Assembly (NCBI GenBank): GCA_964252035.1
Contig: OZ176201.1
Strand: one strand, 5' to 3'
Length of the DNA stretch: 64,000 nucleotides
DNA from: Podarcis erhardii
Lineage: Eukaryota
A program made the position numbers and the translations under genes. Below are positions 40,097-51,669 of this stretch, piece after piece (the stretch's first letter is position 1; each line of letters begins with the position of its first letter). The notes below the pieces were generated by a model, which had not been told where the DNA came from, searched no databases, and worked only from the letters and a program-made list of their open reading frames with translations.

Positions 40097-40921
40097 TGTC
40101 AGAGCTGCCCGAAGTCCCAGCTCACAGAGGACCAATGCCAGGTCGTTGTTATATACAAAAGTCTTTATTGAAGTTCAGTCTCTATTTCAAAACCGTGGCG
40201 CGCAGCTCTACGTCTTAAACCCTAGACCGCCGAAGCTCCGTCTGAATCTCCTCCCCTCTGACACCAGTTTAAGACTCTAGACCTGCTCCACCTCTTCCTC
40301 TGCTCTCTCCTCCTCTGGGTCCTCCTGTCCGCTGGGGCATTCCCCTTTCTGGACTCTTCTGACGCTGAGTCCCCTGACTCCTCCCCCTGCCTCCGGCGGG
40401 CTTTAGGACCTGGTTCCCAATCCGGGTTCTCTGCTGTCCCGCGCGCCTGTACATTTGAACTTGGCTCTCGCGCCAACCCAGTGACCTTCCTCCTGACCGT
40501 TACACTGCTTCTGTCACTACTTCCCTCTTCTGGGAGGCTAGCTGGACCTGGCCTCCCCTCCATTCCCTGACTCTCCGATGGAGGTGTGGTCAGCCCTGAC
40601 TCATCTTCTCTCCCTGCTGGGGGAGACGCTGGCCCCGAGCTCTGGGACTCTTCCCCCCCACTACGCTCTGGTGGGGAAGCTGGTCCTGATCTCCAACTGC
40701 TGCTCTGGGAGTCCCCGCTGGCCCCTTGCTCCTGGAGTGTCCCCTTTTGGACCCCCCTTGCCCTGGCCACCGGCGCCCCCTTCTGTGAATCTTCTGATTC
40801 GCTGGAGAGGCTCATGGAATCTCTCGGGCCACTGTCATCTTCTCCTACGCTGCCCTCAGATTCTTCCCCTTCGCTCTCCATTTCCTCTCTTCCCTGTGCC
40901 TCTGCTCCTGAGCCCCTGACA
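40097..40921 (-). mobile_element. Solo LTR (825 bp, probably Gypsy-type), LTR-A
   Basis: Termini TGTCAG...CTGACA and a 5-bp TSD ACAAC (40092-40096 / 40922-40926). AATAAA on the minus strand at 40164-40169. No PBS or internal region adjacent. Confidence 0.88.
40222..40881 (-). CDS. Putative LTR-encoded 219-aa disordered protein (acidic/Ser-Pro-rich, Arg-rich C-terminus)
   Basis: ATG in GAAATGG context, 40 nt inside the LTR. The frame is open from the LTR edge and the C-terminal motif is shared with the LTR-B ORF. Expression is not shown. Confidence 0.5.
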   Translation of the reverse strand: MESEGEESEGSVGEDDSGPRDSMSLSSESEDSQKGAPVARARGVQKGTLQEQGASGDSQSSSWRSGPASPPERSGGEESQSSGPASPPAGREDESGLTTPPSESQGMEGRPGPASLPEEGSSDRSSVTVRRKVTGLAREPSSNVQARGTAENPDWEPGPKARRRQGEESGDSASEESRKGNAPADRRTQRRREQRKRWSRSRVLNWCQRGGDSDGASAV

Positions 40922-42792
40922 ACAACATTTTATAAAGTGGCTGGAAATGTTGCTCTGTTAGTGCCATATAAGGACCACACACAAAAATCCCATGATACAG
41001 GGTGTACTTCTTGCTTAAAATAGAATCTGTATCGGACAACCATAGCAATATAATAAGTATTGTTGGTTCTTTCATAAAATTTCCATCTATTGTTGAACCA
41101 GTTTTAGTCTACGTACTTGGTATAAAATCCACCATTTTTTAGGCTTTCTTCTTAATCTGTTCACTGTGTGTTTCCAGAAACAGCTCCTCACTGTGCTCAT
41201 TGCTGTAACAATATTACCAGGAACTTACCCAGTCTGCCAGAAGATAATTGCTTTCAGTATCAGAATGTAAGCAAAGTAAAGGGTGGTGCAGGCAATCAGA
41301 TACACATGAAGTGGTCTGGAATACTTGGCAGCCGTGGAACATTTTAGCCGATGTCTTCGTAACTGCAGCTAATGAGACTAGGAATGGTTTTGAGGCTTTC
41401 AGCAAACTAGGTGACTGTGTGGTGCATTAAAGTTGGGTGGAACTGACATCTGTTGTTGGAATCTGATACAAATGTTCAAGCTCACGGATTCCTTTCTTTG
41501 GGCACAAAGGGAAAAAGAGAGAAGCTAAACTTGAGCTTACATAAAAGCAAGTAGGCACTCCAAGCAGAAAGGGCCGTTGACAACAAGAACCTCAAATAGA
41601 TGTGACCAATAAAGGGTTAAACAAGAGTTGGCTCTCAAAACAAAGATCCCTGATTAATTCATTCTTTTTTCCTGCAGTCTAGAAGAGCCATTAGCTTCAT
41701 TTCCCTAGATGGTCTTTGGAAAAAGCATTGTGGAGATTTGTGGTGAAGTAGTTGAAATCTCCCAAAGCATGTGGGGAGCCAAGCTCCTTCACACGAATGG
41801 CTCCCCACCACACATTTCTGTTTGAAATGGCCACCCATGTGGCAAGGTTACAGTATGAACTGAACCCAAGGTGAAGTTGTTACTCCTTCAACAACAAGTT
41901 TGATCTTGCAAGGTGTTGTTGGTCTCTGTTGGTTCCAGTATGGGCTGGCAGTGTCAAATAGCTACCTCAGCTGAACTGTCTGGGAAGGCTCTGCTGATAC
42001 ACGTAAGAAACACAGGGAGCTGCCTTCTCAGACCGTTTGACCATGTAGTCCAGTGTTGCCTGCTTTGACTGGCAGAGGCCACTCACATTACCCAAACTGT
42101 ATAGAGTTAGGCAAATTTCCATGGAAAGCAATGTGCTGTAATTTATGCCGTTAATATGAGTAAGGGGGTAGTAATGACAAATGTATCTAGATATATTGTG
42201 GCTTTATTTTACAATTGTTCTTAAACAACACTGCGCTTTAGGTCCATGTATAGTTTTAAGAACGCTATGATTTTGTATCTTTCTTAATGCTTCATTCTGT
42301 ATTGTTTCTGGTGTTGTTGTTTTACCGTGTGATACAGTCTCCGTCTTTTTGCTTTTACGGATGTTACAGATACACACACACACACACACACACACACGTG
42401 TAAGATTTGGCTGATTTAAAAAAAAATCATTCTTTTAGATACCACAGAAAAAAATGTAGACCATATTCTTAGCTTTACAGTTTGCATGTTGATAGGAATT
42501 ATTTTTGACAGATTGAATTTGCTGCTTTTGCCAACTGGTGTTAAGCAATGGTAAACTGACAGCTTGCTTAATGCCATTTTATTCCATTATGTACTTATTA
42601 ATTAGTACTTGGTGCCACAGTAATTATACTATTGAATAGTCTGAAGATTAATTGCAGAAGCATCCTCTTGTAAAAACATGTGTCCTGTGATGGAAAATAT
42701 CTTCTAGTTTTACCGCCTTCTTTGGGATGAAAAGAGGGGTGAAATATATTGTGTTCTGAAACCATACAAAGATGTTTGCCAAAGGGTAAAGA

Positions 42793-42867
42793 TACTATAC
42801 TATACTGTACAATACTAAACCATACCATACCATACCATACCATACCATACCATACCATACCATACAA
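42793..42867 (+). repeat. Pentanucleotide array, 15 units (TACTA/TACCA variants)
   Basis: tacta tacta tactg tacaa tacta aacca (tacca)8 tacaa. Confidence 0.9.
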
Positions 42868-43021
42868 TAAACAGGGCCCTAACATAGTTTTGAAAGACTA
42901 AAGGAGCAGTGGTGATGACTGTTAAATTATAGCATGGTATAACACCTACAAAGCAGAAGTTCCAAAACATCTTTAGCAATTCATAATCCAAGTTTATTAA
43001 AATATAGGGCAACATATCTCT

Positions 43022-50933: not shown

Positions 50934-51023
50934 CACTTCAGGGAGCACCTTGACAAACTTTTTGCAAAAGGAATCGGAATGTTGGATATAGCTTTAATTG
51001 AAGCTTTCAACATGCTCAGTGAT
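50934..51023 (+). CDS. CACNA2D3: CACNA2D3 coding exon (exon 10 equivalent), 90 nt, phase 0-0
   Basis: ctccccAG acceptor, GAT/GTAAGT donor. Translates HFREHLDKLFAKGIGMLDIALIEAFNMLSD. Confidence 0.97.
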
Positions 51024-51213
51024 GTAAGTTACTGCTTTTTGTTAAGTTTTGTTGTTACTGGCCTTTATAAGTTTATGTGGAAACTGTTAAGTTTTGTGCA
51101 TTTTTTATGTTTTACCTGTACTTATTCTTTACAACTACTTTTGTTATATTGTAGTTTTGTATTTTTTCATGTTGTAAGCTACCTTGAGCATGGTTTAAAC
51201 TCTGGAAACACAC

Positions 51214-51669
51214 TGTTATGTTTCCACGGGGTCGCTTGGGAGCAAGCAGGCAAATATCTCCCTACTTGGCTGTGAAGACTTGGCTTTGCTGCCAAAATAA
51301 ACTTTATCTGTCCGGAGCGCCACTCTCCCGTGGCTGACTCAATCGCTGGCAGAATCCGTGAGTGGGTGGTTCTTAAACTTTCCCCAGCAAAGCAGCTTCT
51401 TGACGCCCAGTCTGCGCCTCCCCTCTCTGCACGAATGCTTTCTGCGCAAAGAGGGCGTGGGCAGCAGAGGACCCCTTCCCTCCCCGCTTCTCCCAGGCAA
51501 GGAGTCCTGGGACCACCTCGCCACTTCCGACTCCTGCACCTCCTCTCCACTGGAGCTGCATTTACTCTCTTCTGTTGAAGAGGAGCTACTTCCCACGATC
51601 CCTGGAGGCTCTCTATAATCCATTTGGCTTTTGCTCTCTCCCTCCTGCACTGATGGCAGTTCCCTGACA
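51214..51669 (-). mobile_element. Solo LTR (456 bp), LTR-B
   Basis: Minus-strand termini TGTCA...TAACA and a 5-bp TSD CACAC (51209-51213 / 51670-51674; low complexity). GC/CpG-rich body inside an AT-rich LINE-tail-like flank. Confidence 0.75.
51339..51623 (-). CDS. Putative LTR-encoded 94-aa protein (Ser/Glu-rich, Arg-rich C-terminus)
   Basis: First ATG is 46 nt inside the LTR (MDYREPP...). Same frame relative to the LTR edge as LTR-A, with the shared motif PSLRRKHSCREGRRRLGVKKLLCW. Confidence 0.45.
   Translation of the reverse strand: MDYREPPGIVGSSSSSTEESKCSSSGEEVQESEVARWSQDSLPGRSGEGRGPLLPTPSLRRKHSCREGRRRLGVKKLLCWGKFKNHPLTDSASD

Follow-up and report, generated by a model that had tools for sequence, protein, structure and literature searches.

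A probable LTR-encoded C-terminal tail of Pol in lizard chromoviruses of the Tf1/sushi type

Proteins encoded in the U3 region of long terminal repeats (LTRs) are known from retroviruses, where MMTV Sag and Nef are separate open reading frames (ORFs) on their own RNAs. Among plant chromoviruses, Pol is already known to enter the 3' LTR: parts of two reports describe this for CRM group A elements and beet Bingo, the LTR part in CRM coding for an integrase C-terminal targeting motif, the CR motif (PMC3059260, PMC3605345). The integrase of the Copia element Ty1 ends, in the portion of PMC10050235 that treats it, in a C-terminal tail with a bipartite NLS and TD1, a disordered linker of about 230 residues that leads into a short basic segment for import/targeting, in which a Trp is important. 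Short motifs that interact with TND domains or bind the LEDGF IBD are described in sections of PMC9987994 and PMC8022399 for JPO2, MLL1, IWS1, PogZ and JIL-1. The Tf1/sushi group (V-clade) of chromoviruses, e.g. sushi-ichi and Amn-san, is defined in passages of bioRxiv 2022.12.06.519325 and PMC6317226.

We analyzed a window, i.e. the whole 64,000-nucleotide stretch of Podarcis erhardii DNA, with two solo LTRs whose open frames very probably are the in-frame C-terminus of Pol/integrase and no separate gene; their product may be a conserved tail of the import/targeting type. The parent elements share with the Tf1/sushi group, as far as the passages cited above describe it, gag with CCHC, PR-RT-RH-IN, SH3/GPF, a chromodomain, a self-priming primer-binding site (PBS) and TG..CA LTRs. 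They differ in adding 100-230 U3-encoded Pol residues that span the promoter and self-primer, and in a chromodomain that lacks the aromatic (methyl-lysine) cage in families A, B, D, E and F. As in CRM and Bingo, the lizard Pol ORF enters the 3' LTR and codes there for an integrase C-terminal motif, as seen in the Pol ends of family D, and the lizard tail can be regarded as a vertebrate counterpart of the LTR-encoded CR motif. However, the CR motif replaces the chromodomain, whereas the lizard elements, which are a vertebrate self-priming lineage, keep theirs upstream of the polypurine tract as Bingo does, and the likeness to the CR motif is one of description only. Ty1 offers the same combination of a disordered linker and a short basic, Trp-bearing end, but its tail is coded within Pol and not by the LTR, so that this likeness is architectural only. 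With MMTV Sag and Nef the lizard frame shares its position in U3, but it belongs to a Ty3/Gypsy element, whose Pol it terminates.

Two solo LTRs and the elements they belong to

LTR-A (40097..40921, minus strand) and LTR-B (51214..51669, minus strand) are 825 and 456 nt long and start with TGTCAGG, as initially annotated. Both end in CA and are flanked by 5-bp target-site duplications, ACAAC at 40092-40096/40922-40926 and CACAC at 51209-51213/51670-51674 respectively. The scant DNA similarity reported between them was likewise recovered, with matches limited to short words (best blastn E 0.045). Both belong to high-copy families, with at least 41 matches at 90-100% for A (40 scored of 3640 candidates) and at least 40 at 85-100% for B (40 scored of 1488 candidates). 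Paired A LTRs lie on both sides of gag-pol in three loci (L061, L062 and L068), and internal RT/IN was found upstream of 3' LTR-B copies at four others (L063-L066). A probable polyadenylation signal of LTR-A, AATAAA, is at 40164..40169 (minus strand).

Judging from their sequence, families A and B are Ty3/Gypsy chromoviruses of the self-priming Tf1/sushi type. Pfam searches on L061 revealed gag followed by PR-RT-RH-IN with an SH3/GPF region between the LTRs, and no extra ORF beyond gag-pol in this A element. By tblastn, the RT of elements ending in LTR-B is 61-69% identical to that of A, and a quick tree, with 47 of 59 rows kept and no sushi-ichi or Tf1 reference elements in it, groups A with B/D (SH-aLRT 99). 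The chromodomain (PF00385) scored above cut-off in families D, E and C and in protein P0018; family A has only a degenerate chromodomain-homologous stretch without a Pfam match. L061 and L062 also have a longer frame of 423 codons ahead of the LTR, but we do not regard it as a gene: it reads the Pol tail in an alternative frame and has no Pfam match, and the non-Pol frames have no synonymous excess.

Continuity, conservation and selection of the LTR frame

The open frame +1 noted initially in each LTR is present, with 232 codons in LTR-A (40222..40920, minus strand) and 109 in LTR-B (51339..51668, minus strand), and the first ATG indeed falls near the LTR start, at nt 41 and nt 47. The LTR frame is in frame with the Pol tail at three of four B 3' ends. 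Among 30 A 3' junctions the Pol register is the commonest (13, vs 9 and 8 in the others); 8 of 20 further A ends are in frame, as are 15 of the 20 junctions recognized among 30 SH3-selected loci. Four further families also continue Pol in frame into the LTR, giving six families in all. The family-D Pol proteins (1376/1369 aa) end in a sequence homologous to the LTR-B tail, and the Podarcis muralis UniRef Pol proteins P0001, P0003, P0012 and P0013 between them carry both tail types at their ends. An acidic linker and basic block, the two parts of the LTR-A product (its linker being Ser/Glu/Gly-rich), also terminate family C and P0033/P0037. The lizard-type tail was seen in just three of 150 representatives, P0017, P0018 and P0023. 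The 17 of 30 A junctions that are out of register, L061 and L062 included, lose the register at G-rich runs immediately before the LTR, where we assume slippage or assembly error. Contigs of four presumed-RNA runs from related species, compared with an A element, gave no joint into the 3' end that could be interpreted, and were uninformative on starts or strand.

The frame is under purifying selection. In 72 family-A sequences, shared changes are enriched in synonymous ones relative to private changes (95 S/108 N vs 46/116; OR 2.22, p 0.0002), in a test in which sites are non-independent and doubletons were dropped. The other two frames gave ORs of 0.84 and 0.64, and non-CpG changes 2.05 (p 0.008). 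Shared stops number 1 in the coding frame vs 12 and 3 in the others, which bears out for A the frame-specific stop avoidance that the initial annotation had proposed as a check. Selection of about this strength acts on the non-LTR Pol tail (OR 2.57), and stronger selection on the integrase core (5.18). Family B alone (31 sequences) was not significant in the shared-vs-private test (OR 1.40, p 0.18), nor were the C-terminal 137 nt of family A (OR 1.67, p 0.21; non-CpG 0.73). The test is somewhat noisy or biased, since in two frames the control after the stop yielded ORs of 2.26 (p 0.085) and 2.01 (p 0.13). In pairs from B, D and E, the conserved C-terminal block of the B-like families (51339..51470, minus strand) has a pN/pS of 0.36-0.41 in frame vs 0.8-1.7 in the other frames. 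The initial annotation had held that a dN/dS of about 1 would count against its reading; the B/D/E values lie near 0.4 and are frame-specific, but one A pair reaches 1.29 across the motif.

The B-like block includes one side (51384-51455) of the 24-residue gapless alignment claimed initially, the other being an Arg-rich block ending in L-x-W in family A (40264..40335, minus strand). We recovered this alignment with 9/24 identities, five of the nine using different codons, and with the Trp 13 (A) and 14 (B) residues ahead of the stop. The A block is retained in UniRef P0012-P0014, with variation at the RE positions. On its own the A-vs-B protein likeness is not significant, its local score of 52 being reached by 17-42% of shuffles; but a profile built from 8 B-like C-termini, with A left out, picks out precisely the A block (12.3 bits), a score reached by 7/2000 and 0/2000 window-shuffles. 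Hence, of the motif's proposed distinctness from shuffled sequence, the multi-family profile match stood and the pairwise score did not, and the likeness is credible only with more families. With this match, Pol continuity and selection, the claim that the frame is coding, and that its protein is conserved across LTR families, is upheld. A Pfam search of the LTR frames gave no match; none of Pfam, Atlas and PDB assigns a function to the LTR-encoded part, and Atlas gave no usable match for the tail. The Arg..Trp spacing may resemble that of the CENP-C motif.

Promoter, self-primer and alternative readings

A PBS-to-R-start match of 10-11 nt, family-specific and co-varying, was found in all five families (1-15/5000 shuffles), consistent with self-priming. 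In LTR-A the self-primer, 11 nt complementary to the PBS, is at 40233..40243 (minus strand; 1/5000 shuffles), within the last codons of the frame, and in LTR-B an 11-nt complement of the PBS of an element at another locus (L058) is at 51353..51363 (minus strand; 4/5000); each would mark the 5' end of R. The frame is thus almost wholly in U3, as had been claimed, and its stop lies 20-25 nt beyond the predicted transcription start. Placement relative to the self-primer points to a putative TATA-position element (-30..-24) of LTR-A at 40267..40273 (minus strand), over the Leu-Asn codons ahead of the Trp. The initial annotation had instead seen a shared TATA-like element in GTTTAAGA (40213..40220, minus strand, in LTR-A). 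This candidate was rejected: GTTTAAGA lies at +24..+31 relative to the self-primer in A, in R downstream of the predicted start, and at -15..-8 in B. The last 10-15 codons are under double constraint, as protein and as core promoter with self-primer, a triple use of one stretch.

A stand-alone accessory protein of the MMTV Sag/Nef type, translated from the LTR ATG on an RNA that is spliced or starts internally, was the initial reading and a tempting one. It would explain why B has a Met at codon 16 and 62 of 71 A copies have one at codon 14, and why the LTR frame is open in many A copies though Pol is out of register. However, P0012, P0014 and P0015 as well as 8 further A copies have Thr or other residues in place of this codon-14 Met, and family D has no Met before codon 74. 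With an ATG that is not conserved, and with the frame placed upstream of the predicted transcription start and the promoter at the frame's end, such a gene is unsupported; with Pol continuous in six families and no extra ORF, we consider it very improbable. Hardly credible at all is chance, i.e. open frames in G-rich, T-poor strands (T being 14% and 18%) with a coincidental Arg-rich alignment. The A-B pairwise score is inside the shuffle range, as is the run of LTR-B, which is matched by 268/2000 dinucleotide shuffles; another frame of the window copy of LTR-B has a longer stop-free run (151 codons). The run of LTR-A is unusual, being equaled in any of three frames by only 12/2000 shuffles. 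Against chance stand homologous junctions with frame continuity across six families, frame-specific selection and the profile test, and it is already largely refuted by the junctions of the further families, the B/D/E pN/pS and the family-D Pol ends.

Two other readings accept translation with Pol and differ over the tip. The tail could be a near-neutral read-through, its L-x-W and Asp-Ser ends being by-products of DNA constraint on promoter and self-primer: the Trp codon, the single codon for that residue, ends exactly 20 nt ahead of the self-primer in A, B, D and E, the Leu-Asn codons of A coincide with the TATA-position element, and in A selection is weak, without reaching significance over the motif region by itself. 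Changes between B and D are, however, mostly at third positions (24 third, 9 second; 42 codons), pN/pS is 0.38-0.49 in the basic part of B/D/E upstream of the promoter zone (-41), shared-stop avoidance is limited to the coding frame, and length changes between families and between subfamilies preserve the frame; we therefore regard this reading as unlikely. A little less unlikely is a functional tip with a role in particle assembly or in binding nucleic acid, be it element RNA or cDNA ends, instead of in nuclear import or chromatin targeting. Arg-rich motifs can bind RNA, and structure prediction places a low-confidence Arg-rich helix at 304-315. Against this, the tip sequence differs greatly among A, B-like families and C with the charge pattern retained, and the Ty1 and CRM integrase tails are, in the parts of PMC10050235 and PMC3059260 cited above, import/targeting modules.

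Tail architecture and candidate host contacts

Under the Pol-tail reading, Pol would be translated from genomic RNA via the integrase core, SH3/GPF, chromodomain, acidic linker and polypurine tract into U3 of the 3' LTR. U3 is copied to both ends and outlasts solo-LTR formation, so that each solo LTR keeps a coding stretch that it probably cannot express, its own promoter starting at the very end of the frame. This accounts for the conserved open frame in thousands of solo LTRs of the genome. The tail consists of a long disordered acidic linker and a conserved basic, Trp-ended tip; in the predicted structure it is disordered (pLDDT <50) and the chromodomain folded. By analogy with the Ty1 tail and the plant CR motif, we somewhat favor a nuclear-import and/or chromatin-tethering module of integrase, and the nuclear role initially suggested for the basic/Trp block at the frame end is in this sense plausible. 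A complex prediction for the C-terminal 50 residues of family D with host H2A-H2B, on the idea of an acidic-patch contact, scored 0.00 and points neither way.

In the same Pol tail, upstream of the LTR and outside the window, there are one or two F-x8/9-FxGF motifs. All 21 FxGF motifs of the 17 tails that we examined have F or L at -9 or -10, within the stretch 8-16 residues ahead of FxGF in which a hydrophobic helix anchor is expected; FQGF occurs in 55 of 61 tblastn rows, and codons within the motifs vary synonymously. Any FxGF was found in 4 of the 83 representatives (of 150) with a long enough tail. In common with the TND motifs, as the cited sections present them, they have a hydrophobic helix anchor, an 8-9-residue Ser/Thr/acidic linker and FxGF in a disordered region. 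They differ in that the strict D/ExExFxGF pattern fits only 4/21; 17 motifs have 3-6 acidic residues, and the four A-type motifs are Ser/Thr-rich with none; TND binding is a candidate property. A PDB search with an Anolis element motif aligned 10/20 residues to JPO2 motif 1 in 6EMO (E 0.88, third of six matches, the other five being de novo proteins), which is no blind test as the query was picked with the likeness in view. Two lizard-locus FxGF queries found nothing in PDB at E 10, full-length P0008 nothing outside RT/IN, and a 10-motif profile only a Numb peptide (E 0.52). Host exons for PF11467 (LEDGF/HRP2 IBD) are present at two loci.

On this sequence resemblance, the FxGF motifs are a possible but doubtful host-contact point. 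Equally tentatively, a lizard Tf1/sushi clade may have lost its chromodomain cage and gained a disordered tail mimicking TND-binding FxGF, so that integration is directed to transcribed chromatin marked by LEDGF/HRP2, a tether that lentiviruses achieve in a different way, with the LTR-encoded basic/Trp tip, lying over promoter and self-primer, serving nuclear import or nucleosome contact. Should FxGF bind LEDGF/HRP2, this would be convergence of a retrotransposon, by motif mimicry, on the host tether used by lentiviruses. The candidate novelties are thus the Arg/Trp motif and the LEDGF/TND-like FxGF just upstream of it in families without the methyl-lysine cage; nuclear entry and target choice of vertebrate Ty3/Gypsy elements have been little studied, and the tail provides two short, defined, testable peptides. 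As to their genomic setting, both solo LTRs are antisense to a host CACNA2D (calcium-channel alpha-2/delta) gene and downstream of its exon at 32554..32709 (plus strand), which was recognized by VWA and a PDB match to alpha-2/delta-1 (E 1e-12).

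Two solo LTRs and their element families

Two minus-strand solo LTRs lie in the window, LTR-A (40097-40921) and LTR-B (51214-51669); both have TG..CA ends and are each flanked by a 5-bp target duplication. Both are antisense to a calcium-channel alpha-2/delta gene and lie downstream of one of its exons. A plus-strand segment at 50934-51023, 190 nt from LTR-B and carrying a GT donor, is probably a further alpha-2/delta exon; it drew no match in Pfam or PDB. Frame +1 is open for 232 codons in LTR-A and 109 in LTR-B, and the ATG positions, 24-residue Arg-rich blocks ending in L-x-W, codon differences and Trp-to-stop distances reported in the initial annotation were all recovered from the sequence. 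The open run of LTR-A is rare in shuffled sequences (12/2000, counting any of three frames). That of LTR-B is common (268/2000), frame +2 of its window copy is stop-free for longer (151 codons, with no sign of selection where we looked for it), and the local A-B protein score is matched or beaten by 17–42% of shuffles. Thus, the two LTRs on their own prove little.

First-look genome searches gave 3640 candidates for LTR-A and 1488 for LTR-B, 40 of each being scored; among the matches listed, solo LTRs with target duplications are the majority. Between paired A LTRs we detected Retrotrans_gag, CCHC, protease, RT, RNase H, integrase and a Tf2-type SH3 domain, while related RT and integrase regions lie upstream of B 3' LTRs, with the RT 61–69% identical to that of A. 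The nearest named proteins are from Podarcis muralis, which points to a lacertid-like lizard as the host. In each family the primer-binding site (PBS) is complementary to a family-specific stretch of 10–11 nt within its own LTR (the self-primer); this match is reached by 1–15 of 5000 shuffles and the pairing co-varies between families B, D and E. At one locus (L023, C4:60357584-60359247) an A solo LTR of 99% identity has inserted next to or into an A LTR of 90% identity, and each has a target duplication of its own; nested elements were likewise noted at L066 and L196.

The LTR frame as the end of Pol

At three of four family B ends, the tail of Pol continues in frame across the polypurine tract (PPT) and on into the LTR frame. 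For A, a junction search with an out-of-register copy as the query found 13 of the 30 best loci in frame, with 9 and 8 in the other two registers, and 8 of 20 further loci, picked for long open frames, were also in frame. Among 30 loci selected by the SH3 domain, 15 of 20 recognised junctions were in frame, the other 10 loci having no recognised junction. The register differences in A sit in G-rich runs immediately upstream of the LTR, for which candidate causes are slippage, errors in assembly or a role in expression; the register varies widely among A copies (L129-L178) and little in D. Pol proteins of P. muralis in UniRef terminate in both tail types, and lizard-type tails are present, unremarked, in automatic UniRef Pol entries. 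Of 71 A copies, 62 have the LTR Met, and no Met precedes codon 74 in family D.

Retroviral proteins encoded in U3 include MMTV sag and nef, and a separate accessory gene of this kind had been proposed for the two LTRs. Given the in-frame Pol junctions and the missing Met in D, the frame is instead the tail of the integrase, a real and selected coding sequence. The self-primer, which lies at nt 679 of the A LTR and nt 307 of the B LTR, was taken as the transcription start and U3/R border, which is supported by a GATAAAA 31 nt upstream of it in family C. By this border the frame occupies U3, as had been suggested, and stops only 20–25 nt into R; therefore a solo LTR would be unable to transcribe it from its own promoter. 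The proposed shared TATA-like element GTTTAAGA did not survive, since it lies at +24 in A, downstream of the start, and at -15 in B.

Excerpts of PMC3059260 and PMC3605345 describe Pol running into the 3' LTR in plant CRM and Bingo chromoviruses. Full-text literature searches turned up nothing on this LTR-encoded Arg/Trp motif, on a Pol extension in vertebrate elements or on FxGF motifs in retrotransposon integrase, and prior notice, for instance in supplements or in Repbase, Dfam or GyDB, is possible; the single match that brought both of the last terms together concerns JIL-1 (bioRxiv 624023, in part). The integrase tail encoded in the LTR is best seen as a known arrangement in a new form, with a testable targeting hypothesis.

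Family C (L192, L196, L104) has a single Gag-Pol frame of 1632 codons that likewise extends into the 3' LTR. It closes with an acidic linker and a basic motif of a different kind, and stops shortly before the GATAAAA box; similar tails occur in the proteins P0033 (Rhineura) and P0037 (Vipera). In fish-type relatives (P0045, P0053, P0082 from Labeo rohita, P0089 and P0151) Pol extends beyond the chromodomain. The extension has PRPRGRPRR-like basic repeats, a run of Gly residues and a short conserved terminus, a layout known from proteins alone that hints at similar read-through into the LTR.

Selection, homology and probable role of the tail

Among 72 sequences of the A frame, shared changes (those in at least three copies, with doubletons dropped and sites not independent) were 95 synonymous and 108 non-synonymous, against 46 and 116 for private changes (odds ratio 2.22, p 0.0002). 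The other frames gave 0.84 and 0.64, and shared stops numbered 1 in the Pol frame versus 12 and 3 in the others. The ratio is on a par with the 2.57 of the Pol tail outside the LTR and falls short of that of the integrase core (5.18). The test is noisy, as the control region after the stop gave 1.2, 2.3 and 2.0 without reaching significance in any frame; it was not significant for B alone (1.40, p 0.18) or the last 137 nt of A alone (1.67, p 0.21). In B/D/E comparisons the 42-codon C-terminal block shows a pN/pS of 0.36–0.41 in frame and 0.8–1.7 out of frame, with 0.38–0.49 for its basic portion ahead of the promoter zone; one A pair has 1.29. A profile of eight B-like ends hits precisely the A block, scoring 12.3 bits (reached by 7 and 0 of 2000 shuffles), and in families A, B, D and E the Trp codon ends 20 nt ahead of the self-primer, indicating that the 24-residue alignment reflects true homology, partly promoter-anchored. 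Of the consensus put forward for it, the basic run and L-x-W are constant, and the RE positions vary in P0012-P0014. The Arg..Trp spacing may resemble that of the CENP-C motif.

The model has a folded chromodomain followed by ~190 low-confidence residues, the tail being made up of an acidic linker with a basic tip that is conserved. Ty1 integrase similarly has a long linker with a basic end, namely a roughly 230-residue disordered linker followed by a bipartite NLS and a Pol III-binding segment (PMC10050235, in part), and the CR motif of CRM group A is LTR-encoded (excerpt of PMC3059260). By analogy to these two, the tail would probably, if by no great measure, import the integration complex or tether it to chromatin. 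That it serves in nucleic-acid binding or assembly appears unlikely, and near-neutral read-through slightly more so.

FxGF motifs and neighbouring elements

Outside the window, one or two FxGF motifs lie between the chromodomain and the PPT in families A, B, D, E, F and G, in P0017 and P0018, and in two Anolis elements. All 21 motifs, from 17 tails, are preceded at a distance of 9–10 residues by a Phe or Leu, with a linker that is either acidic or rich in Ser/Thr, and their codons vary synonymously; F-x8/9-FxGF was located in Pol tails upstream of the 3' LTR at L079, L090, L074, L083, L089 and L135 and in P0007, P0008, P0017 and P0018. Two motifs per tail occur in <0.1% of shuffles and one in 2–4%. 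This anatomy matches that described for TND-interacting motifs, whose FxGF part is required for LEDGF and HRP2 (PMC9987994, in part). The strict consensus D/ExExFxGF (excerpt of PMC8022399) is found in 4 of the 21, the family A linker being without an acidic residue. An Anolis motif, picked as a query for its likeness to JPO2, aligned at 10 of 20 positions with JPO2 motif 1 (6EMO; E 0.88); three other FxGF queries against PDB drew no such chain.

In the FxGF families, as seen for A, B, D, E and F (L079, L090, L083, P0012), the chromodomain is without its first and third cage aromatics, and A also lacks the Trp. In contrast, C (L104) keeps both, and C, P0033 and P0037 combine a canonical-looking chromodomain with no FxGF; by a quick tree these amount to only one or two independent contrasts. 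No chromodomain was seen in the FxGF-bearing Anolis pair. The chromodomains of A, B, D, E and F are type II-like, a type described as plant-only (PMC3605345). The host genome has LEDGF-domain exons at two loci, and mimicry of LEDGF ligands by the tail motifs is a possible, though less than likely, means of targeting.

Elsewhere in the window, a 354-codon open frame with a coiled coil (28010-29074, minus strand) presumably resembles a LINE ORF1 protein and gave only weak coiled-coil matches in Pfam. A LINE RT frame is open for 581 codons (24899-26644, minus strand; RVT_1, E 3e-37), and shorter copies of its end lie at 34697-34989 and 38607-38747.
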